From an uncultured Spirochaetota bacterium (GTDB lineage: Bacteria > Spirochaetota > Brevinematia > Brevinematales > JAOACQ01), in contig CAVYGN010000002.1 of the NCBI GenBank assembly GCA_963768055.1, forward strand, positions 192,001-256,000: a stretch of DNA of 64,000 nt, given 5' to 3'. This document shows, piece after piece, positions 6,258-33,733 of the stretch; positions within the stretch are counted from its first letter, which is position 1; each line of letters begins with the position of its first letter. Position numbers and translations under genes: made by a program. A model generated the notes under the pieces. That model saw only the letters and a list, made by a program, of their open reading frames with translations. It made no database searches and had not been told where the DNA came from.

Positions 6258-6288
6258 AACTTGTTTTATAGAGTAAAAAAGAGTATAA

Positions 6289-10773: not shown

Positions 10774-10886
10774 AAACCTTCCTTTAAACAATTTAACGCT
10801 AGAAGTACGCTTGCCAGTAATAATATATTGATTATTATAATATACTATTTAATTTTTAGTAAGGTTACAGCAGGAAAGGAATTATT

Positions 10887-11154
10887 ATTAAAGATAATAT
10901 GCAACCCAATTTATGAAGTAAATTTTTTTACGCGCTGTATTCACAAGCTTGAACTGCAACGCTTTAAAACTGTCGCAAGCGCTGATTGAATTCTTTTTTT
11001 AATAAAGAAATTTTTTTTATAAATATGGGATTATTAAAATATAACGAGCAGCCTCAGTTAAGCGCTTGCTCCAGTTTTTCAGCGGCAGTTCTTACACTTG
11101 CTCATAACGCGCGTAAAAAAATTAACTTCAAATAACCTACATATTGTCTTTAAT
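10887..11154 (+). repeat. Long imperfect palindrome, A-type copy 1
   Basis: TGAAGTAAATTTTTTTACGCGC...GCGCGTAAAAAAATTAACTTCA stem with further nested stems; homologous to the copies at 13620 and 33176. Confidence 0.85.
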
Positions 11155-11206
11155 TCGGAAGGGATGGGATTGAGACTTTCTGGATGCTGATTTTCGATGG
11201 CAGTAA

Positions 11207-11316
11207 TGTCATTTGGAGGAGCGAAGCTCCGAGAAATCTTGCGATGGGAAAGATTTCTCCCCGCCCTGATGGGGCGAGATAAACCCTTACAGGATAAACA
11301 CTGCATTCGAAATGAC
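11207..11316. repeat. REP-like palindrome (GTCATT...GAGAAATCT / AGATTTCTC...AATGAC type)
   Basis: TGTCATTTGGAGGAGCGAAGCTCCGAGAAATCT...AGATTTCTC...TTCGAAATGAC; a partial second copy starts at 13939. Confidence 0.7.
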
Positions 11317-11359
11317 GAAATTAACAAGACTGCAAAATGGCAAGTTATTGCTTTTTCCA

Positions 11360-11613
11360 GCCGATTCAAATACTATATTTTTTTGAAACAATTTTTTTGC
11401 GAGCTCTTACGAAGAATGCATAAGAGCTGCCGACGAAAAACGGCAGAGCCCCGCCTTCATTAATATTATTTTTTTAATTTTTTACTAAAATTAAAAAAAT
11501 TAAAATAAAGAGGGCGGGACAGTCGTTTTGTGTCGATGCAGCTCAAGCATTCGAGTTAAGCTCGCTAAAAAAATTGTTTCATTAATAAGCCCGTATGTTG
11601 TTTGAACGGCCCC
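11360..11613 (-). repeat. Long imperfect palindrome, B-type copy 1 (inverted relative to A)
   Basis: TGAAACAATTTTTTTGCGAGC...GCTCGCTAAAAAAATTGTTTCA; homologous to 33451-33733; the reverse complement aligns to A-type arms. Confidence 0.85.
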
Positions 11614-11686
11614 TTTTGACGAACAATTTTATTTTGATTATTTTAAATTAGAATAAATAAGCGATCCGCATTGATGGAGGTATAAG

Positions 11687-12775
11687 ATGAATAATCTGAA
11701 AAAGATTTCCGTTTATATCGCATTACTTCCCCTTTTCTTTGGATGCGGTATGACAATTGTAAAAAACGACGATCTGGCAAAACTTCAAACGAACAACAGC
11801 AATTTGATAACCGAAAATCAGGGTTTAAAGGACGACCTTCAGTCTCAGAAAGACCAGGTAGCCTCCCTGACAGCGGAAAACGACAGTTTCAAGCACCTGA
11901 TCGATTCGACAAAGGACAATCTCGGAAAACAGATCGATGAACAGAAATCGGCTAACAGCAATCTTACACTAGAAAATAAAGATTTACAAAAAGAAATTGA
12001 CGCCCAGAAAAGCCAGATATCTTCTCTGCAGGACGCCAGGGATACCCTTCAGAAGCAGCTGGACTCCCTTTCCATGGAAATCACGAACCTGAGCAATATG
12101 GTTGATTCGACAAAGGGGAATTTAGGGGCGCAGATAGATAGTATGAAGGCCGATATTAAAACAAGAGACCAGACAATCGACTCACTTACCGGGGAGATCA
12201 GCAATAAGAATGCAGATATTGCCTCATTGAGGCAAAATATCAAAGATATTTCAGCTGAAAAGGACAAGCTTTTAACCCAAAAAGATATCGAGATGTCAAA
12301 CCTGGCAATGACTTCCACAAACCTCATAAAACAGATGCAGGATGTTATCAATTCCGGCGATTTGAAGATCCGGCAATTAGGAAATGAGCTTAATATTGAT
12401 TTCAAGGATAAGATATTTTTCGACCTTGGAAGCGCGGATATCAGGAATAACGGCAAGAAGGTTTTGAACGAACTGGTCAATGTCCTTAAAACCGTCAAGG
12501 ACAGGCAGATAAGGGTCGAAGGCTATACCGATAATGTACCTATATCAGACCAGTATAAATGGAAATTCCCCTCCAACTGGGAACTTTCAACTTTAAGGGC
12601 GACGACTATCGTTCGGTATCTTCAGTCAAGAGGGGTCGATCCCTCTTTGATGAAAGCGACAGGTTACGGCGAGTTTAATCCCATAGCGCCGAATGACACT
12701 GAGGCTAACCGCGCTCAGAACAGAAGGATAGTCATTCTTCTCGTACCGCTGGACGAAAGAGCGCGATTTAAATGA
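11687..12775 (+). CDS. OmpA/MotB-family peptidoglycan-binding lipoprotein with a long coiled coil
   Basis: Lipobox FFGC; heptad region; FDLGSA, VEGYTDN, NWELSTLRA, NRRI. Confidence 0.9.
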   Translation: MNNLKKISVYIALLPLFFGCGMTIVKNDDLAKLQTNNSNLITENQGLKDDLQSQKDQVASLTAENDSFKHLIDSTKDNLGKQIDEQKSANSNLTLENKDLQKEIDAQKSQISSLQDARDTLQKQLDSLSMEITNLSNMVDSTKGNLGAQIDSMKADIKTRDQTIDSLTGEISNKNADIASLRQNIKDISAEKDKLLTQKDIEMSNLAMTSTNLIKQMQDVINSGDLKIRQLGNELNIDFKDKIFFDLGSADIRNNGKKVLNELVNVLKTVKDRQIRVEGYTDNVPISDQYKWKFPSNWELSTLRATTIVRYLQSRGVDPSLMKATGYGEFNPIAPNDTEANRAQNRRIVILLVPLDERARFK

Positions 12776-12782
12776 GGCTGTT

Positions 12783-13619
12783 ATGAAAGTAGGCTTGATA
12801 TTGATGATAGCGTTTATATTTTCAACCTGCTTTCTGTTTTCACAGGATGTCAATGTTATACTTACCAACGGCACTATAATAAAGGGAAACATGATAGGAA
12901 AAACCGCCGATTCAATAGTGATAGAGGGAAAAGACAATAAGGCTCAAGCTATAAATATAACAGAGATACAGGCTGTTTTTGACGCCGCAAACGGTAATCA
13001 GATCGATCTGTCGCCCGCACCGGTCATACAGGAAAGGTCTGCCGTTTACCGCCCCAGAGAACCCCTGCTGAACGGCCCTAAGAATGCTTTTGCTTTAGAT
13101 CTTATCGATCTTGCTTTAGGGTCTGTAAGAGTTTCATATGAACATTCTTTATCGGACTGGTTTTCATTGAAAGCAGAAGGGGCGTACAGCCCTAACTATT
13201 TCTGGTACAACGGGATCAGTTTCTGGTCTGCGGCTTTATTCGGCAGGTTTTATTTCGGATACAGTTCATGGTATAGAAACCGGACAGGCGGTTTGACCGG
13301 GCCGTTCATCGAAGTGGGGGCAGGCGCCGAGGCCGCAACTATAAATTATTCATATTCGGATCCGTACGGATCTTACCAGATAAACGGGAATTTCCCTATA
13401 GCTCCCATGATCAGGTTCGGTTTCGGCAATAAGATCGTATTCGGAAACGGGAGCGGCATCTTTATAGAACCTCATTTCGGCTACGAGATATCACTAGGCT
13501 ATTGGAATTACAATTATACCGGTACCGGAATATATTCGGATTATTCATACGACTTCCCCTATTTTCAGGGTTTCGGAGAATCGTTCTACTATGGGCTGGA
13601 TTTCGGGTATGCGTTCTGA
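12783..13619 (+). CDS. Putative outer-membrane beta-barrel protein
   Basis: Signal peptide; alternating aromatic/Gly strands; C-terminal FGYAF. Confidence 0.7.
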   Translation: MKVGLILMIAFIFSTCFLFSQDVNVILTNGTIIKGNMIGKTADSIVIEGKDNKAQAINITEIQAVFDAANGNQIDLSPAPVIQERSAVYRPREPLLNGPKNAFALDLIDLALGSVRVSYEHSLSDWFSLKAEGAYSPNYFWYNGISFWSAALFGRFYFGYSSWYRNRTGGLTGPFIEVGAGAEAATINYSYSDPYGSYQINGNFPIAPMIRFGFGNKIVFGNGSGIFIEPHFGYEISLGYWNYNYTGTGIYSDYSYDFPYFQGFGESFYYGLDFGYAF

Positions 13620-13897
13620 GGGCCGACCAGATTAATATGCGAACATCTCTATGAAGTAAATTTTTTTCCGCGCAGTATTCGACAGCTTGAGCCGCTAAGA
13701 CTCAAAACAGCAGCAACCGTTGATAGAATTCTTTTTTTAATAAAGAAATTTTTTATTCTCTATAAGAATGAATTAATTATAATGAGTATCTCGGATAAAC
13801 GTTTGCTATGCTGTTTTTCGCCTTGCGTCTCTACACTGTCTAATAAGGCGCGAAAAAAATTTACTTCAAATAGTGTCGTATATTGTCTTTAATTCGG
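13620..13897 (+). repeat. Long imperfect palindrome, A-type copy 2
   Basis: ATGAAGTAAATTTTTTTCCGCGC...GCGCGAAAAAAATTTACTTCA; begins immediately after the upstream stop codon. Confidence 0.85.
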
Positions 13898-13938
13898 TGG
13901 AATAAAAAGGAAAGCAATACAACATTATTCGCTGGCTA

Positions 13939-13988
13939 TGTCATTTTGAGGAGCGAAGCGTTTATCCCCGTAGGGGGACGAGAAACCT
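13939..13988 (+). repeat. Partial REP-like element
   Basis: TGTCATTTTGAGGAGCGAAGCG...GACGAGAAACCT, similar to the left arm at 11207. Confidence 0.55.
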
Positions 13989-14039
13989 GGCTTCGGCGAG
14001 GACACAAACACCCTTCGGGCATAAACACTTTCTCATATT

Positions 14040-14240
14040 GTTCGATAAAAATTTATTTTCGAATAGTGGTTTTTACTACCGGTACCAGATGTACTGGCAA
14101 TCCGGAAGGATTCCAATATTTTTACAATATTATTATTTTACGTATTTGGATCATGCTCCTTCACCGAGTGCTTTTCCTGCCCCTTCTCCAACGTCCTGGC
14201 CAGCTCCGGGACTTATTTTCCGGCAGTGGCAATCTTAATT
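14040..14240 (-). ncRNA. Candidate structured non-coding RNA (unassigned)
   Basis: Directly downstream of a sigma70-type promoter; long-range pairing of 14220-14227 with 14075-14082 and inner stems; no credible ORF on this strand. Confidence 0.4.
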
Positions 14241-14246
14241 TTTAAC

Positions 14247-14275
14247 AGTATATTTTATGGTCAAAGAAAATTCAA
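14247..14275 (-). promoter_or_regulatory. sigma70-type promoter facing away from dus
   Basis: TTGAAT-17nt-TATACT on the minus strand. Confidence 0.6.
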
Positions 14276-14481
14276 GTCTTTTTTTGCAATTTATTTGCAA
14301 TTTGACCAAAATACTTATTTGCCAAAGTAAGCGGATACCTGCTTTTAAAATCAAATATATTGATATTATAAAAAGGATAGCATTTTAAAAATATCTCCAC
14401 GCCTCTGTGTCTCTGTATAAATCTCCCCGTATCCCCGGTGTCCATTGCCACTTTGCAGTAAAAATGCTATAATTACCCCCT

Positions 14482-15474
14482 ATGACAAACAAGGAACGGC
14501 AATACATCCACCCTGTCAGGGTTGGAAATATCGAGATACAGAATAACATCTGGCTCGCGCCCCTGGCGGGATATTCGAATAAGGCCCTGCGGCTCTTCTC
14601 TTATAAATTCGGGGCGGGATACGCTGAAACGGAGATGGTAAGCCTGGAAGGCCTGCACAGGGATAACAAACGGACCTGGAATTACCTTGACCTGGAAGGC
14701 GAATATCAAACTACCGTTCAGCTTTTCGGGAAAAATGAGCCGAAAAAATTTTATGAAGTATCGAGGATGATGCAGAAAAGGCTCCCGGTTAAAATTATCG
14801 ATATAAATTTCGGCTGCCCCGTCCGAAAGGTGATCAGGACCGGCGCCGGATCGTTTCTTTTGAATTATCCTCATATTATGGGCGATATAGTAAAAGCCCT
14901 TAAGGACAGCGGCGTAATAGTATCGGCCAAAATACGTTCCGGTTACGACAGTGAAAATCTTGAAGAAACGGTCCCTGTTCTCGATAAATCCGGGGCTGAT
15001 ATTATCATTGTTCACCCCCGCCTCGCCGTGCAGTTTTACAATGGAAAAGCCGACTGGAATAAAATATTGAAAGCCCGGCAAATGACAGGAAAACTTTTAA
15101 TAGCGAGCGGAGATATCGTGACGCCTGAAGACGCCCGGAAGGTACTCGAAACGACGGGGGCCGACGCTATTATGATCGGCCGCCGGGCTGTAGGATCGCC
15201 TTATATTTTCAAACAAATAACCGATTATCTTAAGAATGGGGTCTATTCTTCCTACACTCTTGACGATATCAAGGAAATTATGCGGCAATTCGCCGCGCTG
15301 TATACCGGCTTAATTAAAAATGACAGCATTATCCCTATAAGGTCCACTCTGATACAATACGTCAGAAATTATAAGAACTCAAAAGATGTCCGGCATAAAC
15401 TTTCTGCTATAAAAAACAGCTATGAACTTGAAAGCGTCCTCGATACATGGCAATACGATCCTGAGGATAAGTAA
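14482..15474 (+). CDS. dusB: tRNA-dihydrouridine synthase (DusB-like)
   Basis: LAPLAG, QLFG, DINFGCP, KIRSG, IMIGR. Confidence 0.9.
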   Translation: MTNKERQYIHPVRVGNIEIQNNIWLAPLAGYSNKALRLFSYKFGAGYAETEMVSLEGLHRDNKRTWNYLDLEGEYQTTVQLFGKNEPKKFYEVSRMMQKRLPVKIIDINFGCPVRKVIRTGAGSFLLNYPHIMGDIVKALKDSGVIVSAKIRSGYDSENLEETVPVLDKSGADIIIVHPRLAVQFYNGKADWNKILKARQMTGKLLIASGDIVTPEDARKVLETTGADAIMIGRRAVGSPYIFKQITDYLKNGVYSSYTLDDIKEIMRQFAALYTGLIKNDSIIPIRSTLIQYVRNYKNSKDVRHKLSAIKNSYELESVLDTWQYDPEDK

Positions 15475-15559
15475 TCCCATAGACTTGTCCTGCGGATATT
15501 TGATTAATTCTCAAAAGTATTATATATTTATCGCTATTATTCATACCCGGAGGAATGTT

Positions 15560-17137
15560 ATGAGAAAAATAAATACAATCAATTTAATAGCCATGGGGAC
15601 GGTTCTGACTGCTTTTATAATATCTGTGTCCGGCTGTTCAAAAGACGCCAGCACTATAGCGGTTTACGGCAGCGGGCAGAATGCCCGGAACCTCACAGTC
15701 GGGGAAGTAAAATCAACTATGGAGAGATACGCGTTAAGATTCGGCAATGATTTCATTACCAACCGGGATTGGCAGAAAGATATAATTTTCAGGGCTTTCA
15801 TCGCTCCGGAAATCGCTGTCAAAGACAAAATTGAAAAAGGATACACTAACTCCCCTGAATTCAAGGAATCTTTTGAAAAAGAATATAAAAGGAACGAATT
15901 GGGCCTTACAGCAAAGAAAGGTTATGATTTTTTTACAAACCAGGCTAAAAACGATCAGAAAGAGACCTATGAAGTAGCTCATCCCGTCCATATATTGTTT
16001 ACTTACAGCCGCATCACAAATATCGATTCCATCCGGGTAACAACCATTGTCACGAACGGCGTCAAACAGCCTGTGACAAATCATATCACTATCCAGACCA
16101 ACCTGTCGGATAAGGAATATAGCGATATGGTAAAGGAGAAGTTATCTTCAGCGATGGATATTATCAAAAAGCTGAAGTCCTCCGGAGATCAGCAGAAAGA
16201 GTTCGAAAGCCTGGCCTCGAATGTTTCGGAAGAAGATAACGGCTTGATCCCGCGGGGTTCCAAGCCCAAGGAATATGAAGACGCGGTTTTTTCGGCTAAA
16301 AAACAAGGCGTCCTGGATAAACCCGTCTCTACCGATGAAGGCTGTTATGTAATATTTATTAAGGCCCCGGCCGCCCAATTGACCATGTCAAAGATCGAGC
16401 AGGAGGACGGCAAGGAAAATTTCCGGCGGCTTGAACAGACCCTTGATGAACAATATTATGAAAAATCGAAGAACAATAATATAAAAGAATTTTATTCATT
16501 GGACTATAATAAAAAAACAGCGACCATTAACGGGAAAGAATATAAAATCTCCGAAATACCTGAAAATGAAGTTGTAATTGAAATTTTCGGCAAGCAAATA
16601 ACATGGAAGGATTGTATCGATAATTTTCTTATATTCGATCCTTCTTTTGATAAAAAAATTACAATCGACAGTTTTATGAATATTACAAATCTAATTAAAA
16701 AATTACTGTTCTTTACCGAGTTCGCCGGTAAACAAGGAATCGGAAAAGATCCGAAATTCCTGGAGGAATTGACAAAACAGAAACAGGAAATTTCTAAAAA
16801 GCTTGTTTTAGAAAGTTATAAAATGGAACTGGTCTCCAATGTGAATTCCAAAGTCGAATCGGCGATAACCCCGAAAGCTGTCATGGAATATTATGAAAAA
16901 AACAAACAGGATTTTACTAAACCCCTTAACGGTAAAAACGTGCAACTGAGCTTTGCAGAGGCTAAACCTGCCGTTACAGAAGCTTTGAAAAGAAAGTGTT
17001 TAATGGAAGCCAGCAAGCAATGGAAAGAGGATTTGATAAAGAAAACTATGGTCACTTATAAAGACAGCGGCCTCAATGACCTTAAAGAGCTCGAACTGGA
17101 CCAGATTAAAAACATGAAAGATTTCAAGCAAAAATAA
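15560..17137 (+). CDS. PpiC/PrsA-like foldase lipoprotein
   Basis: GGAGG then ATG at 15560; lipobox VSGC; HILF, FESLA...SE and KPVSTDEG parvulin-like remnants. Confidence 0.65.
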   Translation: MRKINTINLIAMGTVLTAFIISVSGCSKDASTIAVYGSGQNARNLTVGEVKSTMERYALRFGNDFITNRDWQKDIIFRAFIAPEIAVKDKIEKGYTNSPEFKESFEKEYKRNELGLTAKKGYDFFTNQAKNDQKETYEVAHPVHILFTYSRITNIDSIRVTTIVTNGVKQPVTNHITIQTNLSDKEYSDMVKEKLSSAMDIIKKLKSSGDQQKEFESLASNVSEEDNGLIPRGSKPKEYEDAVFSAKKQGVLDKPVSTDEGCYVIFIKAPAAQLTMSKIEQEDGKENFRRLEQTLDEQYYEKSKNNNIKEFYSLDYNKKTATINGKEYKISEIPENEVVIEIFGKQITWKDCIDNFLIFDPSFDKKITIDSFMNITNLIKKLLFFTEFAGKQGIGKDPKFLEELTKQKQEISKKLVLESYKMELVSNVNSKVESAITPKAVMEYYEKNKQDFTKPLNGKNVQLSFAEAKPAVTEALKRKCLMEASKQWKEDLIKKTMVTYKDSGLNDLKELELDQIKNMKDFKQK

Positions 17138-17143
17138 AGGCTG

Positions 17144-18727
17144 TTATTTCACGCGCTTTTTTAATAATTCTTCATAATTGATTATGTTGGTATCGGAAGG
17201 AAAGAGTTCAAGGCCCTTTTCAGCTATTTCCAGAGCTTTATTATAGTTCCTGTACCTCATTTCTCTATAAATGTTCTGATAATAAAAGTATTGAAAGTTC
17301 GAAATAGTGGATTCATTAGAAGGGTCGGTTTGCATGCTTATCTGGGCGTAATCGTTTCCTTTTTCAAAATTACCCTTTCTAAAAAAATAAATCGCGGTTA
17401 GTTCCGCTATGCCGGCCATGTCGCTTATTAGAACTTTTGATTGGGGAAATATGGCAAGGCCGTTGGATATAATTTCCATTCCCCTGTCCGGATTACCGTA
17501 ATAGTTAAATTTCATCCCTGTCTGGCTGTAATAATTTTCAAGAATAGTATCAAAATAATCGTTTTTCATCAATCGATACCATTTCAGCATAAGCTCTTCG
17601 CCTTCAGGATATTTTCTCCAATCATCAATAAGTTTCCTGCTTAGAAGGTTATATCCATTTATCATCAGGACCCTGATATTATCATACCTGGATTTTTCAG
17701 CAAGCGCCTTTTTACCGATCTCATAAGCTTTCAGGAAATCATTGTCATGATTTATCACTTTTGTAAATATCTTAGTATAAATATCCATTTCATACTCGTC
17801 ATTTCTCCCGGCAAGGAGAATGTATTTGTCCATTTCAGCTACAGCCCTTTCACAAAAGCCCGATTCGATAAGGACATTGAGATATTTATTGAGTATATAG
17901 AAATAATTGGTTAAATACAGATTTTTAAGCGGAAGATGGAGTACGGCCTCTTCGAGAACTGAAAGGGCCTCTGAATATTCCTTCTTTGTATCCGAAAGAT
18001 AAAGAGAGTATCCGGTTATCGCTTTCGCCAGATTCGTATGCATATTCTTTAAATCGGGATCGATGGCAATAGAACGCAGCGCGTATTGATACGAATATTC
18101 ATATTGTTTAGATAAGTTTGCCCGCTCTGAAAGATCTTCATATATATAGGCCAAAAGACTTTTTTTAGCAGCATATTCAGTGAGGCCCGGGCCTCGGTCA
18201 ATTCCGCTCGAGTCTATGTCAAATCCCGCCGGATCAAAGGCGTTGACAAGGATATCAACCTTTTCAATGGAAAGGATCGAATAAACATTGGTCCCGTCTA
18301 AAATGCACTTGCACGAAAATCCCTGATCCTCCATGAGGCTGTTAAAAAGGATCGCGGCTGAAAGAGGATTATAAAGGCCCTTTTTTAATAATAATTCAAA
18401 TGTAGAATCCTGATCTGCGGCTTTTACCATTAACCGGGTGTGCATAAGGTTAAAAATGAGTTTTGAAACCTCGATGGGATTTTCAGGCAAACTCCCGGCG
18501 GAAGAGAATCCCGCCTCGAAATTAGATATACGGTCAAGGCTGTTCTGTAAAAGACTGCCTTTCATTCCGGAGGCTAAAAGAGCCCCTTCTTTAAGACTAA
18601 AAGAATCGGGATTAATAATAAGCAGGTATTCCTTTGAATTCGTTTCAAGGGATAGAAATTTCGAGATAAAGGAATAGACCTCCGTTTGCAGTAAAATAAA
18701 GAAAATTACCAGAGACAAGATTTTCAA
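17144..18727 (-). CDS. Exported TPR protein with a degenerate transglutaminase-like domain (paralog of the next gene)
   Basis: Colinear similarity to 18741-20363 (FISKFLSLETNSKEY vs FTSKFLAIDTNSLEY; AYEIGKKALAEK identical). Confidence 0.75.
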   Translation of the reverse strand: MKILSLVIFFILLQTEVYSFISKFLSLETNSKEYLLIINPDSFSLKEGALLASGMKGSLLQNSLDRISNFEAGFSSAGSLPENPIEVSKLIFNLMHTRLMVKAADQDSTFELLLKKGLYNPLSAAILFNSLMEDQGFSCKCILDGTNVYSILSIEKVDILVNAFDPAGFDIDSSGIDRGPGLTEYAAKKSLLAYIYEDLSERANLSKQYEYSYQYALRSIAIDPDLKNMHTNLAKAITGYSLYLSDTKKEYSEALSVLEEAVLHLPLKNLYLTNYFYILNKYLNVLIESGFCERAVAEMDKYILLAGRNDEYEMDIYTKIFTKVINHDNDFLKAYEIGKKALAEKSRYDNIRVLMINGYNLLSRKLIDDWRKYPEGEELMLKWYRLMKNDYFDTILENYYSQTGMKFNYYGNPDRGMEIISNGLAIFPQSKVLISDMAGIAELTAIYFFRKGNFEKGNDYAQISMQTDPSNESTISNFQYFYYQNIYREMRYRNYNKALEIAEKGLELFPSDTNIINYEELLKKRVK

Positions 18728-18740
18728 GCCAAGCCCTCCG

Positions 18741-20363
18741 CTATTTTATCTTTTTGCGTAAATAATCCCTATAATACGTTAGTTTAGGGTCATTAGGAAA
18801 AAAAGAAAGTCCTTCTTCCGCAATAGAGAGAGCCTTCGAATAATCTTTATTTTCAATCTCTTTTGAATCGTAAGTCCTGTATGTAATAATCAGGTTGGAT
18901 TTCAAAGCCTGGCTATCCGGATTTGCCTCGAGTCCGATTTTCAGGAATTTAATGGAGTTGTCATAATCTTCCCTGCCGAAATATACATTTGCGGTATTGC
19001 CGGTTATATAAGCTATATTGTTTTTAATAAGCCGGGATTTCGGGAAAAAAGCCAGTCCTTTTTTCATGATATCGATTGCCTTAAGAGGATCGCCGTAATC
19101 GTAGAATTTCAAACCCACCTGGTTATAATAGTTTTCGAGGATGGAATCAAAGTATGTGTTTTTGCCAAGTTCATGCCATTTCAGAATAAAATCTTCACCT
19201 TTCGGGTAATCCTGCCAGCTCTTCTCAAGATTCAGGCTTAGAAGATTCATACCGCTTATCATAAGACTAACGTAATTATCGTCATTCGGTTTTTCGGCGA
19301 GAGCTTTTTTACCAATTTCATAAGCCTTTTCATAATCTCCATCATGATTTATCAGCCTGTAAAGGATCCTGGAATAAAGGTTTTCCGTTATATTGTTGTT
19401 CGTACCTGCAAAAGCCTCCGAACTGTCCAGTTCGACAAACGCCTTATCATACCGGGAAGAATCGATAAGGCTGTTAAGATACTTGTCCAGTACATAAAAA
19501 TAATTTGTAAAGAAAAAGTCCTTTTGCGGTATATTTTCTATGGCCTCCCTAAGTATTGAAAGGGAGAGCGTGTAATCGCTTTTTGTGTCTGCCAGGTAAA
19601 CACTGTAAGTTGTATATGCGGCTGAAACATTGGAATAAATAAACTTTCCATCAGGAAAAATTGCCCAGGATTTCAAAGCGTCCTGAAACGATTCGTATAT
19701 CCGTCCGGATTTGAAATTAAAATATGACATATTCGCATAAGTATAAGCCAGGAGGCCTTTCTTGCCGACGATTTCCATAATGGATGGATCGTGCGAATAA
19801 GAAAATCCTGTTAATTTTTTAAACGTTTCCTGGGCTTCCCTGTTCGTACCTATATCATAACCGTACGGACTGGTGTTTTCAACATCGATTTCCCTTCCTT
19901 CTTCATTCAGGAGGGTATAGGCATGTGAAGGCAGGATAACCGCTTTGGATTCCACTCCGAAATCCTCGAGAATACTGTTGTAAAGAAGTGTAGAAGAAAG
20001 ACAGTTGAAACGGCCGGTATTAATAATCGAATCGAGAGTCGTCTGGGATTCTTCATATTCTTTTAAAAACTTTTTATGTATTTGAAGGAATAAAAACTTT
20101 GTGAGTTCCTCCGCATTTCCCCGGGTATTTTTTTCATTCGATATCCCGGCCTCAATATTTGAAATCCTGTCAATGTATAATCCCAGAGAATCTTCATTAA
20201 TTCCCGATATAATAAGCGCGCTTTTTTCCAGGGGAAATGCTTCCGGATTCTCTATTACCTGATATTCAAGCGAATTAGTGTCGATCGCTAAAAACTTCGA
20301 TGTAAACGGATACATGCCTGCATAAAAACAAATCAGGATAAAAATCAGGAATGATTTTTTCAT
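18741..20363 (-). CDS. Exported TPR protein with a transglutaminase-like domain
   Basis: Signal peptide; FNCLSSTLLY...LPSHAY...IDVENT Cys-His-acid motif; TPR-like helices. Confidence 0.75.
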   Translation of the reverse strand: MKKSFLIFILICFYAGMYPFTSKFLAIDTNSLEYQVIENPEAFPLEKSALIISGINEDSLGLYIDRISNIEAGISNEKNTRGNAEELTKFLFLQIHKKFLKEYEESQTTLDSIINTGRFNCLSSTLLYNSILEDFGVESKAVILPSHAYTLLNEEGREIDVENTSPYGYDIGTNREAQETFKKLTGFSYSHDPSIMEIVGKKGLLAYTYANMSYFNFKSGRIYESFQDALKSWAIFPDGKFIYSNVSAAYTTYSVYLADTKSDYTLSLSILREAIENIPQKDFFFTNYFYVLDKYLNSLIDSSRYDKAFVELDSSEAFAGTNNNITENLYSRILYRLINHDGDYEKAYEIGKKALAEKPNDDNYVSLMISGMNLLSLNLEKSWQDYPKGEDFILKWHELGKNTYFDSILENYYNQVGLKFYDYGDPLKAIDIMKKGLAFFPKSRLIKNNIAYITGNTANVYFGREDYDNSIKFLKIGLEANPDSQALKSNLIITYRTYDSKEIENKDYSKALSIAEEGLSFFPNDPKLTYYRDYLRKKIK

Positions 20364-20385
20364 TGCAGCCGCCCAAAATAAAACT

Positions 20386-21720: not shown

Positions 21721-21756
21721 CGGCCCCTCTGCCCGCTGTAAATGTTTACTATTGAC

Positions 21757-21972: not shown

Positions 21973-22081
21973 TTGAGTCCGTTTTGGCCGAAAATTATAC
22001 TTTTTTTAAAAAAAATCTTATGCTATAATTAACGCTTTGCAAGTAATTATTTCCGGTTAAATAAAATCATGGTGTTTGATA

Positions 22082-23926: not shown

Positions 23927-23929
23927 ATA

Positions 23930-25613: not shown

Positions 25614-26728
25614 GCGGCTTTCACGAGCGCCAGTATTAATTTTACCGTGTTTTCAAGGTCATCGATCTCGACATATTCCTCAGTTGAATGGACATTCATC
25701 ATGCCTACAGCCAGATTGACAGAGGTCAATTTGTTCTGATTGTAAAGATTCGTGTTGCTTCCCCCCCCTGTTCTTTCAAAACGCGGGACCAGGCCGATCG
25801 ATTCAATAGCCGACTTCGCGAATTTAATTATTTCATCATGTTTTGAAAAATTGAATCCCTTGTACAACTCTTTAAATTCAAGAACTATATCGAGGGCATC
25901 CTTCCTGTTTTCCTCAACCGCAGCAGATATCTCGTTTTTCAAGCGTGTAATCTCATAAATGTTATGAGACCTGAATTCGCCCTTTATAGTGCAATCCTCG
26001 GGAATGATATTAATAGCCTGCCCTCCATCGATCACCCCAACATTTGCGACGGTATCCTTGTTTAATTTTCCCTGAGGCAATTCTTTTATAATTTCAGCGG
26101 CTATCTTGATCGCGTTTATGCCATGTTCCGGCGCTATTCCGGCATGACTTGCCTTTCCCTTGACCCTTACATCATAACCGAAATGATGCGGGGCGGCCAC
26201 AACTACGCCTCCGACTTTACCATGAGAATCAAGAATAAAACCGAAGTCCGTTTTAATCTTTGAAAAATCGAGGTAATGAACGCCGGTAAGCCCTATTTCT
26301 TCCGCAGATGTAAATAAAAAATAAACGTCTCCATGACCGGCTTTCGATGATATTATTTCTTCAAGGGCTATGATCATAGCCGCCACTCCGGCTTTATCGT
26401 CACCGCCGAGAATCGTGCTTCCATCGCTTTTAACCCTGTCATCCGTTACAACGGGTTTTATACCGATCCCGGGTTCAACTGTATCAACATGCGAATCAAA
26501 AAAAATGCTTTTCCTATTTTTTTCATTCGAACATAATTTGACTACCAGATTGCCCGAATTCTCGCCGATTTCATCTATACTATAGGGAATGTATTCTATT
26601 TCAACAGGTAAATCCGACAACCTGTCTTTTAAATAACAAAACATCTTTTCTTCCTTTAACGAGAGGCTGTCTATTTTTACTATTTTTACAAACTCTTCGA
26701 CCACCCTATTTCTGATAGTTATTTCCAT
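25610..26728 (-). CDS. M20 family peptidase (peptidase T-like)
   Basis: SHVDTV, GGDDKAG, EEIG, HAG, HSTEE. Confidence 0.9.
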   Translation of the reverse strand: MEITIRNRVVEEFVKIVKIDSLSLKEEKMFCYLKDRLSDLPVEIEYIPYSIDEIGENSGNLVVKLCSNEKNRKSIFFDSHVDTVEPGIGIKPVVTDDRVKSDGSTILGGDDKAGVAAMIIALEEIISSKAGHGDVYFLFTSAEEIGLTGVHYLDFSKIKTDFGFILDSHGKVGGVVVAAPHHFGYDVRVKGKASHAGIAPEHGINAIKIAAEIIKELPQGKLNKDTVANVGVIDGGQAINIIPEDCTIKGEFRSHNIYEITRLKNEISAAVEENRKDALDIVLEFKELYKGFNFSKHDEIIKFAKSAIESIGLVPRFERTGGGSNTNLYNQNKLTSVNLAVGMMNVHSTEEYVEIDDLENTVKLILALVKAA

Positions 26729-27398
26729 TGATACCCCTTAAATACTCTTCGGCCATAATAAGATCGAAAGGCGTTGTGATTTTTATATTATGCTCTTCTC
26801 CGTCAATAATATCGGCTGCCATACCCTGCATCTCAAACAAGCGGGAATCGTCTGTAAAACATGTCAAACCCCTGTCTCCGGCCAACATATGAGCCTTATA
26901 TATAAGGTCGAATTTAAAGACCTGCGGAGTTTGAAGTTCGTAAGCCTTGTTCCTGTCAATATAACCTGAAATCGTTTCAGCATCATCCGATAGGACAAGC
27001 GTGCCGCGAACTTTGACTGCAGGAACAGCGGAACCTTTATCGGCAGCATGGCGAATGCATTTTTTGAGTAATGATAATGAAAAGAGCGGCCTGACGCCGT
27101 CATGAATGACAACAATGTCGATATTTTTTCCCGATAAACGATTGAGCCCGCTTAACACAGAGAGCTGCCTTGAAAGCCCTCCTTCCGCCACTTCTATCGA
27201 ACTTCCGGCAATCAGTTTTCGGGTTTCATCCATCCAGTCCCTGTTCGCCACTAGAACCATATAATCCACGGCATCCTTAAATTTGCCAATACTGTATTCA
27301 AGGATGCCTTTGCCTTGAAGTTTTAAAAATTGTTTGGGGATCGCGGAACCAAACCTTGCCCCGGTTCCGCCGGCCAGAATAATGCCGCCGACTTTCAT
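26706..27398 (-). CDS. ispD: 2-C-methyl-D-erythritol 4-phosphate cytidylyltransferase
   Basis: LAGGTGARFG...PKQF, IHDGVRP, QTPQ, NIKITTPFD. Confidence 0.9.
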   Translation of the reverse strand: MKVGGIILAGGTGARFGSAIPKQFLKLQGKGILEYSIGKFKDAVDYMVLVANRDWMDETRKLIAGSSIEVAEGGLSRQLSVLSGLNRLSGKNIDIVVIHDGVRPLFSLSLLKKCIRHAADKGSAVPAVKVRGTLVLSDDAETISGYIDRNKAYELQTPQVFKFDLIYKAHMLAGDRGLTCFTDDSRLFEMQGMAADIIDGEEHNIKITTPFDLIMAEEYLRGINGNNYQK

Positions 27399-27402
27399 AT
27401 GC

Positions 27403-27762
27403 TTATTTGTTTGAACCGGGCCCCATATTTGACAGGATATTAAGTACGTTATTCGTAGAAGCGTTTGTATTCACCGTTATCCCAGGCTGCTGTGTCCCGG
27501 TTTCCTGAGTCTGGCGTGAACGGGTGTAATTATTATATTCCTTGATTTTAATATAACTCATCAAAAAGGCGGTTACAAAAAATATACCTACCAGCCACTT
27601 CGTGAAATTCACCAGCACTTCGCTGGTTTTCGCCCCGAATGCTCCAAGGGTGAGATCGCTGCCGAATACTCCGGATTGGGCCCCGCTGCCTGATTGGAGT
27701 AGAATGACCGGAACCATCAATACTATATCTAAAATAAAGATTACCATTAAAAATGAGAACAT
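27403..27762 (-). CDS. secG: Preprotein translocase subunit SecG
   Basis: Two TM helices; ILLQ...G...FG; location next to apt. Confidence 0.8.
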   Translation of the reverse strand: MFSFLMVIFILDIVLMVPVILLQSGSGAQSGVFGSDLTLGAFGAKTSEVLVNFTKWLVGIFFVTAFLMSYIKIKEYNNYTRSRQTQETGTQQPGITVNTNASTNNVLNILSNMGPGSNK

Positions 27763-27801
27763 AAATCCTCCCTATTAGACCGCAAAAAAATTTTCAGCTT
27801 T

Positions 27802-28311
27802 TCAACTTTTCAACAATGAAAATACGGGGTATTTGATATTTTCCCTGCCGTTCAAGCCCTCAAGTTCAATCAGAAAAACGCATTCAACGATCTTTCCGCC
27901 CAGGCGTTCCACGAGTTTAATCATCGCCCCGGTTGTGCCTCCTGTGGCAAGAAGATCGTCAATTATAAGAACATTATCGCCGGCTGAAATCGAGTCCTTA
28001 TGGACTTCAATCGCCGCTTCGCCATACTCAAGAGCGTATTTCTGAGAGACGGTCTCAGCCGGAAGCTTCGACGGTTTTCGCGCTGGAACGAATCCCGCAC
28101 CAAGCAGATAAGCCAGAGGAGCCCCCACAATAAAACCCCTGGATTCAGGTCCCACGACTTTATTGATATTTTTACCCCTGCAATGCGAGTACAGGTCGTC
28201 TATACTGCTTTTAAAGGCCGAATGGTCTTTCCATAACGTCGTTAAATCTTTAAACAATATCCCGGCCTTGGGAAAATCAGGCACTTCCCGGATATATGAG
28301 TTATAATCCAT
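27802..28311 (-). CDS. apt: Adenine phosphoribosyltransferase
   Basis: PDFPKAGILFKD, ESRGF, LEYG, IDDLLATGGT. Confidence 0.97.
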   Translation of the reverse strand: MDYNSYIREVPDFPKAGILFKDLTTLWKDHSAFKSSIDDLYSHCRGKNINKVVGPESRGFIVGAPLAYLLGAGFVPARKPSKLPAETVSQKYALEYGEAAIEVHKDSISAGDNVLIIDDLLATGGTTGAMIKLVERLGGKIVECVFLIELEGLNGRENIKYPVFSLLKS

Positions 28312-28458
28312 GGCTTCCCCCTGATAAAAATCTCACCGTTTATTTTACAATATTTATTAAATTCTGTAAATTAATGGTTCAACTATCTTTACACTGATGT
28401 AATTTGAAATATTTGGAGAAGTGATAAGAAAATCTTCAGACGAAATCAGGGGAAGTAT

Positions 28459-29184
28459 TTATCCAAGTTCAAAATAGATATTGCTCAGGGCGGATAACGC
28501 CGCCGTATCTGTTTTAAGAATCATGCCCCCCAGGCTCGCGCTGTGAAAGCCGGCGGTTATTAATCTGTCGGCCTCACCGCAGGAAATTCCTCCTTCAGGG
28601 CCTATTAACAGTTCTATCTTTTTGGCTTTGCTGCCCGATAGAATCTTTTTAAGAGTTTTTTCTTCCTCCAGCTCCCATAAAAGGATTTTCATCGAATCTT
28701 TTAAAAGCATGCCGCCGATATTCTCGATTGAGACGGTATAATGTATAGACATCTGACTGCTTCGCCCGATCTGTTTCATTGTTTCAAGAGCAATCCTTTC
28801 CCATCTTGCGATCTTTTTAAGCCCTCTCTCCTGGGAGAGTTTGGAAATCGTCCTTTCTGTTACGACCGGGACTAACTCATTGACCCCCATCTCGCATGAC
28901 TTTTCCACGATCCAGTCAAATTTTCCTCCCCTGGGAAGGGCCTGGTAAAGGCGTACAAATGTCAACCTTCCCGCCGAAGGGTGTATTTCCAATATTTCCA
29001 GATTAACAATATCCTGCCTTATATCTTTTATCCTGACTTTAAGATTGTTTCCCCTTCCATCAGTCGCCGGTATTATATCACCCAGGTTCTTCCTTAAAAC
29101 ATGAGTTAAATGGTGAACATCGCTTCCGGCGATAAAAGCCGTTATACCATCGATATTTTCATCCGGAATAAAAAATTTTCTCAC
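28459..29184 (-). CDS. rsmE: 16S rRNA (uracil-N3)-methyltransferase RsmE
   Basis: HHLTHVLR, EKSCEMGV, IGPEGG, LKTDTA; GTG start inferred. Confidence 0.9.
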   Translation of the reverse strand: MRKFFIPDENIDGITAFIAGSDVHHLTHVLRKNLGDIIPATDGRGNNLKVRIKDIRQDIVNLEILEIHPSAGRLTFVRLYQALPRGGKFDWIVEKSCEMGVNELVPVVTERTISKLSQERGLKKIARWERIALETMKQIGRSSQMSIHYTVSIENIGGMLLKDSMKILLWELEEEKTLKKILSGSKAKKIELLIGPEGGISCGEADRLITAGFHSASLGGMILKTDTAALSALSNIYFELG

Positions 29185-29200
29185 AATAAATATCTCAATA

Positions 29201-29791
29201 TCAATAATTATATGATAAAAGCTCAAAATACGCCCTGGGATGCTCGCAAACCGGGCATTTTACCGGCGCCTCGGCCGATTCTAATATATACCCGCAGTTC
29301 CTGCATTTCCACAGGACCTTTTTATTCTTTTTGAATACTTCCCCGCTTTTGAGGTTTTGAGCCAGTTTTCTATAACGCTCCTCATGACTTTTCTCAATTT
29401 TAGCTATGCCGCTAAAAGTCCTTGCTGCGTCCATAAAACCTTCCTGCTCGGCTGCTCCTGCAAATTCAGGGTAGAGTTTTGTCCATTCCTCATGCTCTCC
29501 GTCCGCCGCGCTTTCCAGGTTTTTTATTGTATCGTCAGAAAAAGCGATCGGAAAAGCCGCTATGATGTCCTGCATGCAGTCGGTATTTACGTTAGTACAT
29601 AGCTGTTTATAAAAAAGCTTTGCATGTTCTTTTTCATTTTCTGCTGTTTCCATAAAAATCCCTGCGATCTGCTGAAGACCTTCCTTACCGGCGCAGGAAG
29701 AATAAAATGCGTACCTGTTCCTCGCCTGTGATTCTCCGGCAAAGGCCTTCATAAGATTTCCGGCTGTTTTTGAATCCTTGAACTGTTTCAT
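29201..29791 (-). CDS. rbr: Rubrerythrin
   Basis: [33 protein letters not shown]...CPVC. Confidence 0.95.
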
Positions 29792-29808
29792 CTCTTCCCC
29801 CTTCTTTA

Positions 29809-30999
29809 CTATATAATCGAAAGCCCTTTATGCTTATGCTCGATCGCACCGGCGAGCTCGTCCAGGGCCCTGAATTCCTTTTCCCCGGGATATCCCTTCG
29901 CGATGACGGGCGTTAAAACTTCGGCTTTTACATTGTAAAGCATCGCCTGGATCTGTTCCAGGGCTTTTCCTCCCCATCCGTAGGAACCGATTACGGATAC
30001 AAATTTCGTCTTCGGCCTGAGCAGGTTATAAAGATAAACTGCGTATGCTACGGAAGGATGCATGCCGCCCAGGACAGTTGGAGCGCCGACAATAACTGTA
30101 GCGGCGTCTGTCACTGCCATAGCGAGTTTGCCCACGTCAGTGACGGTAAGGTCGAAGGGTTTAACATTGATCCGTTTTTCTATAAGCGCGTCTGTCAGAT
30201 AATCGACCATGACCCTGGTACTTCCATGCATCGATATAAATGGAATGATTACGCTATTAGCGACCCTATCGGAAATCCAATCTTTATAACAGTTAATTAT
30301 GTATTCCGGGTTTTTATAAACTGCGCCATGACTGGGCGCTATGATATTAATGTCCAGCGAAAGGATCTTATCAAAATTTCCGGAGATATTCGACCTGAAG
30401 GGATACATTATCTCCGAGAAATATCTGAAAGCCGGCTCCCTTACCTCCTCCTCCTTTCCCTTTTCAATGAACAGGCGGCTGTCCGCTATATGGGAACCGA
30501 ATAAATCGCAGCTGAAGAGAATTTTGTCCTCTTTATTGTAAGTTAACATAGTTTCAGGCCAATGCACCCAGGGAAATATTATGAACTCAAGGGTTTTATC
30601 ACCCAGGGAAAGAGTTTCACGATCCTCTATAACTATAAATTTATCCTCGCTGACCTGAAGAAGGTCCATAAGGAACGCTTTACATTTAGCATTAGTAACC
30701 ACCTTTGCTCCGGGAAACATGCCCAGAAGACCGGGTATGCACCCGGAATGGTCCTGTTCGGCATGATTTGCAATGATATAGTCAATGTTTTTAATTTTAA
30801 GCTTTTTCAGGTTGGCGTAAATTTGATCGGCCGTTCCAGGATCGACGGTGTCTATAAGCGCTGTTTTATCAGTCCCCTTAATAATATAAGAATTATAACT
30901 GGTCCCGTCCGGAAGAGGGATAAGTTCGTCAAATAATCTTCTTCCCCAATCTTTGCCGCCGATCTCAAATATACCTTCTGTTAATTTTCTCGCCACCAT
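29809..30999 (-). CDS. fprA: Flavodiiron protein (FprA, A-type flavoprotein)
   Basis: [24 protein letters not shown], flavodoxin C-terminus GSYGW. Confidence 0.93.
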
Positions 31000-31003
31000 A
31001 TTT

Positions 31004-31702
31004 TTATTCCTTCTTAAACTCGTCTTTAGGGGCGCCGCATACCGGGCATAGCCAGTTTTCCGGTAAATCCTGGAAGCTGGTGCCGGGTTTTATCCCAGCA
31101 TCGGGATCGCCGGCGGCGGGGTCGTAAACATAACCGCAAACTTCACAAACATATTTTTCCATCCTGATATCCTCCTTTATAATTTTTTTATCATGAATAT
31201 TGACATAGGTCGGTGCAAATTTAGACGTTTTCCCCTTTTTAACGTCCCTGTAATAAGCATAAGTCAGAGGCTGGTCTTCCGTCAGGACCGCCGATTCCAA
31301 AAGATTGCCGATGAATATTGAATGGCTGCCCAGATCGACGCTCTTAAAAACTTCGCATACATAATAAGCGATCGAATAATCAAGGATTACTGGAACGCCC
31401 TTTTCCGCTATCTTAAAATTGACGCTTTCAAATTTATTGATTTCCCTCCCCGACCTGAACCCGAATTTCCCGAAAAATTCGAATGGAGCATCCTGTGAAA
31501 GGGCTGAGACTCCGTATAAACCTGAAGTCTCAACCATATTGTGTGTATAGGATTCCTTGTTTATTATAATCTGAAACGTCGGAGGTTCCGAATTTACCTG
31601 GCAGAAAGTATTTCCTAATAAACCGTTATACTTATTGCCCTCGAACGAGGTAAAAAGGTAAAGCCCGTATGTAACTTTAAATAAAGCTTCAATATCAACC
31701 AT
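31004..31702 (-). CDS. Flavin reductase-rubredoxin fusion (high-molecular-weight rubredoxin type)
   Basis: YGLY and GSHSIFIG flavin-reductase domain plus C-terminal [10 protein letters not shown]...WLCPVCG. Confidence 0.9.
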
Positions 31703-31761
31703 GTTATGAAAACCCTCCGAATTGATATTTTGATACGCAGAGTGAAATAAGTCAAGATTAA

Positions 31762-33039
31762 TTACGCCCTGGTTAGCATATTGAAAAATCTTTTTTTACT
31801 GTCTTCAAGAATGTTCATCATGTTTTTAAATATTTCTCCTTTGGATACAATTATGCGGGCGGTTCCTTCTTTAACCGCCTGCATCCCGACAGCCTCCGCA
31901 ACATGGGCAAAGGCTTCCAGGTCATAAACCGAAGGTATGATCCTTTCAGCAGATAATTCGGTTTCGCTTAAAAATCCGGACAAAGCCAGAGCCGCAGCCA
32001 GTTTCATCCCTTCTGTAACACTCCTGGCCCTGACGTCCAGGAGACCCCTGAAAATAGCCGGGAAACCCAGGCAATTGTTGACCTGATTGGGAAAATCACT
32101 TCTTCCGGTAGCTACTATGAACGCTCCGGCGGCATGAGCTTCATCAGGAAGGATTTCAGGGTCGGGGTTGGCCATTGCAAATATGACAGGTTTCAAGGCC
32201 ATACTTTTTATCATATCGAACGTGAGAGCCCCTTTCGCAGAAACTCCTATAAAAACATCGGCTTTATTGACTGCATCTGCAAGTTTCCCTCTTTCACCCC
32301 CGGGATTGGTCATTTTCGCGATATCTTCTTTCGAATGGTTCATATGCGATGACCTGCCCGAATATAAGACGCCTTCACGGTCGCACATAATTATATTCCG
32401 GGCTCCGTAAAAGATCAGAAGCTTTGCTATGGCGACTCCCGCAGCGCCGCTTCCATTTATTACTATTTTAACATCGCCGATGTTTTTCCCTGCAAGTTTA
32501 AGTGAATTTATTAGCCCGGCTAGAGTAACAATAGCCGTACCATGCTGGTCGTCATGAAAAACGGGAATGTCGAGTTCTTCAGAAAGCACTTTTTCAATCT
32601 CGAAGCAGCGTGGCGCGGATATATCCTCTAAATTTATTCCTCCCGCCCCGGAAGAGATCATTTTAACCGTATGAATTATCTCACCGGTATCCTGTGAGGA
32701 AATTATTATCGGATAGGCGTCAATTCCGCCGAAGATCCTGAATAACAGGGCCTTACCCTCCATAACCGGCAGGGAGGCCTTTCCGCCTATATTGCCGAGT
32801 CCCAGAACGGCGCTTCCATCGCTGACCACAAAAACCGTATTACCCTTTACTGTATATTCATAGACTTTTTCTTCATCCCCGCTGATCTCCATGCAGGGAA
32901 CAGCCACCCCTGGAGTATAGGCAAGAGACAATTCCCGCCTTGTTTCCACGGAAACTTTCGGGATTATTTCAATTTTTCCGTTTCCTATCCCGTTTTTCCT
33001 GTGATATTCAAGCGCCGCTGTTTCAAGATCGCTCATCAT
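31762..33039 (-). CDS. NAD(P)-dependent malic enzyme
   Basis: [44 protein letters not shown]. Confidence 0.95.
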
Positions 33040-33113
33040 AAAATAGCATTCTCCTAAAAAGTATAATAGAAACGCCCATAAGTTTAATTTGCAAGGGGGC
33101 TTTTGGCAAAAAA

Positions 33114-33172
33114 AGGACCGCTCAAACAATACCAGCTTTTATGGAGTCAATTTTTATCTTGCTGGGATTCGA
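33114..33172 (+). repeat. Truncated stub of the long-palindrome family
   Basis: GGACCGCTCAAACAATACC...ATGGAGTCAATTTTT...TTCGA resembles the first ~60 nt of the reverse-complemented B copies. Confidence 0.5.
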
Positions 33173-33175
33173 GAA

Positions 33176-33431
33176 GGGTCGAATCGATTAATATGCTAAT
33201 CTCTTTATGAAGTAAATTTTTTCCGCACTGTGTTCGATAGCTTGAGCCGCTAAGTCTCAAAACAGCAGTCCCGCCCTCTATTTTGATTTTTTTAATTTTA
33301 GTAAAAATTAAAAAAATAATATAAATGAAGGCGGGGCTTTCACTGTTTTTCACCTTGCGGCTCTACGCTATCTGCATAATGCGCGTAAAAAATTTACTTC
33401 TAACAGCTTTGCTTATTATCTTTAATTCGAC
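33176..33431 (+). repeat. Long imperfect palindrome, A-type copy 3
   Basis: ATGAAGTAAATTTTTTCCGCAC...GCGCGTAAAAAATTTACTTC; carries the CCCGCCC...GGCGGG central module. Confidence 0.85.
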
Positions 33432-33450
33432 AGAAGAGGAACTATACTTT

Positions 33451-33733
33451 CCCGTAGATTTAAATAATATACTTTTTTTGAAACAATTTTTTTAGCGAGT
33501 TCATTACGAAGAATGCGTAAGAGCTGCCGAGGAAAAACGGCAGGGCAAGCGCTTTAGCCGGGATCGTTCAGTAACCAATTGTAATTTATTAATGATATCA
33601 AGATAAGGTTCTTTATTAAAAGCATTCCATCAGCACTTGCAGCCGTTTTGAGTCGATGCAGCTCCAGTATTCGAGTAATGCTCGATAAAAAAATTGTTTC
33701 ATTAAGAAGATTGTATATTGTTTGAACGGCCCC
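33451..33733 (-). repeat. Long imperfect palindrome, B-type copy 2
   Basis: TGAAACAATTTTTTTAGCGAG...CTCGATAAAAAAATTGTTTCA...TTTGAACGGCCCC. Confidence 0.85.

Follow-up and report, generated by a model that had tools for sequence, protein, structure and literature searches.

The stretch of DNA analysed here (the window) comprises 64,000 nucleotides, C2:192001-256000, of the genome of an uncultured spirochaete designated G000 (two contigs, C1 and C2; 3.69 Mb; 41% GC), and it carries five copies and one stub of a folded repeat that lies between genes. Relatives of this host are designated G001 to G009, and individual sequence loci or contigs bear L-numbers. An earlier note on this DNA had described the repeat as a palindrome family of two types, A and B; all five copies and the stub were confirmed at the positions that it gave, and alignment confirmed that B is a reverse-oriented relative of A (Table 1). 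A divergent ECF sigma gene starts 90 nt from A1, the left member of the first of two inverted doublets, and a divergent OmpA-family gene is found 73 nt from B1, the partner of A1. The two ends of the element are non-equivalent, with a sharp 5' boundary, where conservation begins abruptly at a start usually reading RGGSC, and a ragged 3' boundary. In A1 and in a copy at C2:1060351 the complement of the 3' arm stands in place of this start. A3 and B1 have in common a centre of another kind, which has four occurrences in G000. Four of the stem motifs that had been cited as examples of compensation are present as well: GAAGTAA/TTACTTC in A2 and A3 (A1 has TTAACTTC instead), GAAACAA/TTGTTTC and GAGCTGC/GCAGCTC in B1 and B2, and GAACTGC/GCAGTTC in A1.

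Table 1. Copies of the element and associated repeats in the window (ORF, open reading frame; REP, repetitive extragenic palindromic).
Feature	Position	Strand	Remarks
A1, full copy	10882..11158	+	derived A subtype; 5' start overwritten with complement of its own 3' arm
B1, full copy	11360..11613	-	derived B subtype; right member of A1/B1 doublet
Alternative centre CCCGCC...GGCGGG (AT-rich hairpin)	11450..11518	.	inside B1; also in A3 and two copies elsewhere
A2, full copy	13620..13897	+	first base directly after TGA of ORF 12783-13619
B-type 5' stub	33114..33175	+	profile positions 2-62; A3 directly follows
A3, full copy	33176..33431	+	alternative centre at 33270-33335; left member of second inverted doublet
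B2, full copy	33451..33733	-	right member of A3/B2 doublet; divergent ORF (33801) 67 nt away
REP-like GTCATT...AATGAC palindrome, another family	11207..11317	.	between A1 and B1
REP-like GTCATT-type sequence	13939..14030	.	behind A2; read from sequence

Iterated nhmmer searches of G000 yielded 72 non-overlapping matches, 35 of them full length (about 275 bp). Pairwise identity among the copies has a median of 61% and a maximum of 88%, and by their end types the full copies divide into 13 AA, 15 BB, 2 mixed and 5 unclear. DNA folding gave z-scores of -9.6 for A1 and -5.2 for B2, none of 200 shuffles being as stable, and values from -2.3 to -19 for the 35 full copies (12 shuffles each). Of the one long interrupted hairpin that had been proposed, the stable folding and a conserved outer stem of about 100 bp stood, whereas the AT-rich centre (about 90-100 nt) showed no consensus structure. 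A structure of 36 pairs was drawn from the same 19 sequences on which it was tested (14 G000 copies and 5 from relatives); 92.3% of its cells are paired, compared with 39-51% when the structure is slid, and double changes occur in 20 of the 36 pairs, which 0 of 500 shuffles reach, although such figures are inflated by the relatedness of the sequences and by the way in which the structure was obtained. In a nearest-neighbour comparison (25 pairs, 34 G000 copies) we counted 77 single changes and 30 double changes, 7.3 of the latter being expected, and 19 of the 30 led from one Watson-Crick pair to another. In the ancestral form described below, 26 of 35 pairs covary among 13 copies. Thus, with covariation far above controls, the earlier proposal that structure is kept over sequence holds, and the loops and bulges do lie at fixed positions. 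Rfam 15 contained no match at gathering score for the window or the spirochaete copies, only miRNA-type chance matches; the repeat is indeed a non-coding multi-copy family without an Rfam name.

Part of this covariation is probably mechanical and made by arm-to-arm copying, as A1, the copy at C2:1060351 and two G002 copies (L165 and L178) indicate, the latter two having locus-specific, perfect outer arms. Since such copying can make double changes in long inverted repeats, covariation alone is no proof of recognition by an enzyme; that the unpaired loops persist despite arm copying is the argument for selection. At three places in G000 (C1:876666-877042, C2:181963-182347 and C2:601150-601527) a full copy begins exactly at the break of another copy, at about position 101-105, the apex, which suggests that the apex is a joining hotspot. 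The separate GTCATT...AATGAC REP-like family has 89 motif matches genome-wide, lies within 300 nt of 20 of the 72 copies and forms BIME-like mosaics with them, and GAC-heptamer repeats occur in 8 of 43 element 3' tails.

The window copies are derived from an ancestral element of two modules. In its layout, a T/A-rich terminal hairpin is connected through an AAAGAAA linker to a long interrupted hairpin whose loops are fixed, namely a 2x2 TC/TC loop, TT/TAC, a TTAC bulge and an AACTC...CTCARACA apex. The terminal hairpin with the AAAGAAA linker was found in all 14 G003 copies, in the G009 and G007 copies examined and in two G000 copies (C2:1719355 and C2:1724025), and most copies of this form keep the AACTC...CTCRRACA inner loop. 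Most G000 copies have lost the terminal hairpin and gained about 45 bp in their outer stem, and their apex is eroded. All three stages are seen behind one orthologous gene for a lipid A acyltransferase (proteins 65-74% identical), which is followed by the element in its ancestral form in G003, in an intermediate form in G001 and in the derived form in G000. Model R1, the training copies of which match by construction, detected the element in 5 of 61 genomes, all of the host family (37 matches in G000, 5 in G001, 10 in G002, 14 in G003 and 7 in G009), and in 0 of 49 genomes outside it. Model R2, built from spirochaete ancestral-form copies only, scores all five window copies at 50-73 bits and matches 11 of the 12 genomes of the host family.

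The two-module arrangement recurs in Ralstonia and on viral contigs. The terminal hairpin matches multi-copy repeats on replicons of Paraburkholderia, Burkholderia, Caballeronia and Ralstonia; R2 aligns the Ralstonia locus L077 across both modules, the loops being the same (45.6 bits, E 1.2e-8), and it scores 11 of 12 further Ralstonia loci picked by the apex motif, 10 of them as two-module elements and one as a short weak match. The Ralstonia element occurs as inverted doublets of about 540 bp. Between glgX and glgB such a doublet is present in R. wenshanensis and gone in two Ralstonia strains, where one outer palindrome, left or right, is left behind. On viral contigs, a 20-nt apex motif alone selected 22 loci, and in 19 of these the closing stem has 5 bp or more. 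The terminal hairpin lies 58-72 nt upstream of the apex in 14 of these 22 loci and downstream in none, as compared with 5 of 220 random windows, and of 12 ancestral spirochaete copies in which this spacing was measured, 10 have 68-72 nt. The apex of these relatives reads GCGNAGC on one strand, and the GCGNAGC mini-hairpin is not known to be stable other than in DNA. A strict terminal-hairpin pattern matched 0 viral loci and 4 of 301 spirochaete genomes, all of the host family; of 70 metagenome loci selected by pattern, 3 are clear members and 1 is marginal. A pattern search also gave matches in Nitrospira, Acidobacteria and Collinsella, which we rejected as chance (6 lie in coding sequence); 8 of its 12 matches were dropped as members, the spirochaete ones excepted. 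Neither a phage collection nor E. coli genomes (the latter by blastn) contained a match. No description of the two-module class was found in the open literature (supplements and subscription journals being outside that scope), and motif queries returned 0 papers or unrelated primer matches; a supposed link of the R200 repeat to this family was not supported in those parts of the literature that were available. In 4 of the 22 viral loci (L338, L340, L353 and L355) the element adjoins a P2-type head-completion (GPL) gene, by Pfam matches for L338, L340 and L355, L353 mirroring L338; at L338 it lies between the GPL gene and a small terminase gene.

The positions of the copies revealed a marked polarity. 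Using mechanically called ORFs of at least 120 aa, we found that of 58 intact 5' ends 22 are no more than 5 nt, and 28 no more than 20 nt, from a stop codon on the same strand, as against 0.7% of random intergenic positions for the 5-nt limit; a convergent stop at the 3' end was seen in 0 of 43 cases. The remaining 30 intact 5' ends comprise 16 at most 130 nt from a divergent start, 5 directly behind another copy and 9 that are neither. Six of 21 adjacent pairs are inverted, and in all six, two of which are in the window, the 5' ends point outward. Most G000 neighbours are ordinary genes. Flanking repeats gave no excess that would indicate target-site duplications, the longest measuring 4.57 as against 4.66 in shuffled pairs (30 copies, of which old ones may have lost the signal), and there is no TA consensus in 49 5' flanks.

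Empty sites in sister genomes, for which the earlier note had suggested looking, were found at two loci. Behind dnaN the element is present in G000, whereas a short spacer and the same next gene occur in G001, G002, G003 and G006, G004 being rearranged there. G000 also has the element between flgG and dinB, where the spacer of G001-G003 is short. In a related strain, one contig joins the A1 flank, with 4 differences in 344 nt, to A2-like sequence; the contig ends inside the repeat, and therefore replacement of an allele and loss of the A1-A2 segment are not separable. Other joints among related-strain contigs were discarded, their sides being shorter than 60 nt and probably from paralogous copies. 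The gene convergent with dnaN in G000 (L016, C1:403097-403957) has a match to Anti-Pycsar Apyc1 in Pfam, and its synteny is kept in four relatives.

The strict sense orientation at stop codons raises the possibility that the element acts in RNA, copies being kept at the 3' ends of genes because the co-transcribed hairpin would make mRNA more stable, undergo processing by RNase III/E or hold up ribosomes at termination. As reported in the available sections of two papers, REPs at most 15 nt from a stop can stall ribosomes (PMC12306157), and ERIC and YPAL elements are co-transcribed and affect mRNA stability (PMC2229807). Such a role would, however, leave the 16 divergent-start copies, the doublets, the nested copies and the junctions with toxin-like genes described below unexplained. 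Moreover, no consistent G-U excess was detected, the orthologous housekeeping loci work without the element, and the apex of the relatives carries a mini-hairpin not known to be stable other than as DNA, and we regard an RNA-level function as distinctly unlikely.

Several ancestral-form copies lie in arrays of toxin-like genes, the labels toxin, immunity and Rhs being taken from architecture and motif readings, not from database matches. At C2:1710027-1722053 of G000 the order is a gene of 2595 aa, a second gene, a DUF3467 gene, an ancestral-form element and an orphan module. This module has at its start, about 20 nt from the terminal hairpin, a 267-bp copy (97% identical) of the interior of the 2595-aa gene. 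G003 contains four units in which a DUF3467 stop, the element and an orphan module follow each other, and three further units in which the terminal hairpin abuts a fragment that we take, from its motif, to be Rhs-core-like and that has no Pfam match. An RHS-repeat-like fragment precedes the hairpin end in G009, where an insertion sequence (IS) or defence-like genes are also enclosed by inverted pairs. Six of 10 array-type DUF3467 genes are directly followed by a model-supported element, one more by a remnant and another by an element after an intervening gene, whereas 0 of 11 core DUF3467 genes have an element nearby. The G003 array units share blocks of about 1 kb that are 94-99.7% identical, and hence represent few independent events. 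The predicted DUF3467 model (pLDDT 63) had its best matches to the COMM domain (Z 4.8), Pur-alpha (4.0) and PC4/Sub1 (3.4-3.5), all with Z<5, so that a PC4/Pur-like fold would be a weak lead. The G000 locus as a whole (L080, C2:1710027-1724963) is polymorphic-toxin-like, with DUF3467 paralogues and an F5/8-type Pfam match in the gene after the 2595-aa gene; a frame of 601 codons begins at an ATG beside its element and runs across the element into the orphan module.

These junctions could mean that the element is a cassette-joining site used by the host, an attC analogue without an integron integrase, whose terminal-hairpin end is the point at which orphan toxin-immunity modules, and accessory genes of other kinds, are cut and joined. 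The duplicated interior fragment beside the G000 hairpin, the G003 units of both kinds, the difference between array-type and core DUF3467 genes, the bracketed cargo of G009 and the related-strain contig that runs from the A1 flank into an A2-like copy are all in keeping with it. One insertion followed by ordinary homologous duplication could, however, explain the repetition of near-identical G003 blocks; most of the 72 G000 copies lie between ordinary genes; the related-strain contig does not separate deletion from allele replacement; and the low fold scores of DUF3467 lend no help. In addition, the nearest of the 14 tyrosine recombinase (PF00589) matches in G000 is 46,977 nt away from a profile match, and we consider a host-used cassette site rather unlikely. 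Integron attC sites keep structure over sequence, have fixed unpaired bases and stop codons at one end, and form cassette arrays, and the element resembles them in each of these respects, its arrays being cassette-like and toxin-like. Unlike attC, it is far longer, dispersed in both orientations instead of arrayed behind an integrase, without a recombinase within 46 kb and without a RYYYAAC/GTTRRRY core pair in its consensus. The likeness to attC that the earlier note had drawn thus fails on size and on the link to an integrase.

Among the known systems nearest to the element are the REP/REPIN elements, which are associated with RAYT (Y1 HUH) transposases (PMC3116915, PMC3337134, PMC3733652). 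According to the available parts of these sources, they share with it an extragenic, non-coding and hairpin-forming nature, inverted doublets, absence of target-site duplication, long vertical persistence and a position next to stop codons, and the loss in the Ralstonia relative that leaves one outer palindrome is like the excision products of REPINs (PMC3337134). They differ in that a REP, as described there, measures 20-40 nt, whereas the window element is a two-module structure of 250-290 nt. There is no GTAG/CGTC tag at the ends of the window copies, the unit of about 275 nt starting with RGGSC, and GTAG stands beside the outer palindrome only at one end of the Ralstonia doublet. Moreover, 5 of 6 genomes tested have no RAYT, and the G000 copies are only about 61% identical. 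An annotated RNA borders on the family: the Burkholderia small RNA (sRNA) candidate Bp1_684 (Rfam RF02421) overlaps a small outer palindrome and the first 10 nt or so of the terminal hairpin in the Burkholderia relative L074, covering the flank and not the long hairpin, with no match in the window or in spirochaete ancestral copies. Bp1_684 (L074:2899-3010), listed as an sRNA, may thus be part of this repeat and not a stand-alone sRNA.

MITEs (miniature inverted-repeat transposable elements) such as ERIC/IRU (RU-1) and YPAL (RU-2) are likewise long interrupted hairpins, intergenic, oriented near gene ends and present in filled and empty sites, as far as the available sections of PMC2229807 describe them. 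The window element could accordingly be an old classical MITE, ERIC/YPAL-like and mobilised by a DDE transposase, with decayed target duplications and terminal inverted repeats and with compensation purely due to template-switch repair of a long palindrome. Its intergenic, palindromic and lineage-variable nature near gene ends is YPAL-like, the perfect outer arms of L165 and L178 demonstrate arm copying, and a transposase of the rve type is found on the 3' side of two G003 copies, and one G000 copy has a remnant of this transposase's end on its 5' side. ERIC and YPAL, however, make target-site duplications (TA, or 3-26 bp; PMC2229807, available sections), and for the window element neither these nor TA ends were detected. 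It is also about twice as long, has asymmetric ends and an ancestral form with a one-sided terminal hairpin, and found no match in E. coli genomes; arm copying should have removed its mismatched loops, yet these are kept across phyla. As a partner, the rve transposase was rejected, since a third copy of it has no element and its G000 relatives are only 23% identical and at least 3.5 kb from any profile match. The ends of the main IS of G000 (1.6 kb) differ from those of the element, a comparison made with this IS only. With no target duplication and with these differing ends, the element gives no indication of being a decayed IS or MITE of the ordinary kind, in contrast to the alternative that the earlier note had named, and we find a classical MITE origin very unlikely. 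The main IS (for example C1:182776-184371, 1596 bp) is unrelated to the element and present in about 14 identical copies, and therefore recently active, besides diverged ones. The rve remnant at C2:1724262-1724284 of G000 is near-identical to the IS end in G003, and 15 nt separate it from an ancestral copy's terminal hairpin.

Two further candidates for a partner were set aside, namely a small GIY-YIG gene without a profile match nearby and a presumed autonomous copy at C1:472002-473625, which contains two unrelated membrane-protein genes and no transposase. Among the neighbours scanned, no recombinase or transposase lies beside a copy, and 28 viral neighbours have no mobile-element family in common.

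Taken together, the element is multi-copy, polar, variable in position between lineages and derived from an ancestral form. We propose, with a probability of roughly 0.55, that it is a non-autonomous, REPIN-like single-stranded-DNA element moved in trans by a candidate nicking enzyme. The element would fold on single-stranded DNA, and its fixed loops would be recognised by a putative enzyme encoded elsewhere, most likely an HUH-type nicking transesterase as for REPINs. The joint made by this enzyme would be precise at the 5' (terminal-hairpin) end and ragged at the 3' end, without target duplication. Copies would survive where the 5' joint meets a stop codon or a promoter edge, or cuts into dispensable toxin-like genes; once settled they would persist for long and be rewritten by arm-to-arm and copy-to-copy conversion. 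The element thus works like a REPIN or another non-autonomous folded-DNA repeat, yet it falls outside REPIN-RAYT, classical MITEs and attC, and what is new are its ancestral two-module form, its cross-phylum reach and its junctions in toxin arrays.

Several observations weigh against the proposed transfer by a nicking enzyme. Y1_Tnp had 0 matches in G000 (94.75% complete; control positive in 6 of 14 cases) and 0 in G001, G002, G003 and G009, and the sole RAYT-like ORF among the 6 genomes tested is in G004, which yet has few copies of the element. Y2_Tnp, the transposase expected for IS91/ISCR rolling-circle ends, had 0 matches in 5 genomes, where the control was silent as well. The scanned neighbours (71+37+13 proteins of G000 and relatives, and 28 viral ones) shared no recurring family except DUF3467 in the toxin-like arrays. 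With no Y1/RAYT in G000 or in 4 of 5 relatives, the enzyme encoded elsewhere that the earlier note had proposed stays putative. The dispersed G000 copies are old, the closest pair being only 88% identical, so that any present mobility would be hypothetical. In Ralstonia the empty alleles have the look of deletions and not of pre-insertion sites. R2 matched 0 of 41 other spirochaete genomes and, at E<0.001, no more than 3 of the 22 viral loci, so the viral link is one of architecture and motif, not of overall sequence, and the putative homology across phyla rests on motif geometry and moderate covariance-model scores. Finally, tests of the folded strand disagree: 26 of 35 copies fold better as the minus strand, and the arm alignment has 107 GT versus 131 AC, whereas pairs derived with RNAalifold (GT 30 versus AC 14) lean to the plus strand.

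A bolder and doubtful extension would have the family represent an undescribed cross-phylum class of single-stranded-DNA sites with two-module geometry, at whose terminal-hairpin end a putative enzyme would join DNA precisely, so that hosts could build and reshuffle orphan toxin/immunity arrays and accessory cassettes in an integron-like manner, though with a site and an enzyme that would both be new, and with DUF3467 possibly helping. For the REPIN-like element proposed above, a loop geometry that spirochaetes have in common with betaproteobacteria and prophages, in the absence of RAYT and of target duplication, points to an unrecognised DNA-processing activity, and it bears on the origin of orphan toxin modules and on why some repeats sit exactly at stop codons. 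The family offers a defined substrate and a three-stage series at one orthologous site, and with the pair of terminal hairpin and apex motif, 58-72 nt apart, whole genomes can be scanned for the partner gene. Should there be no such partner, the repeat would simply join the other REPIN/MITE-like families.

Other repeats were observed in the window. A 31-nt inverted repeat (84%; 5211-5241 and 6237-6267) with CCACAGATT-type units surrounds ORF 5351-6205, and coding repeats of about 150 nt at 1956-2874, within ORF 1822-2880, probably encode a beta-propeller. At 42701-44650, two tandem paralogous genes, presumably flagellins, contain DNA repeats of 73-79% identity.

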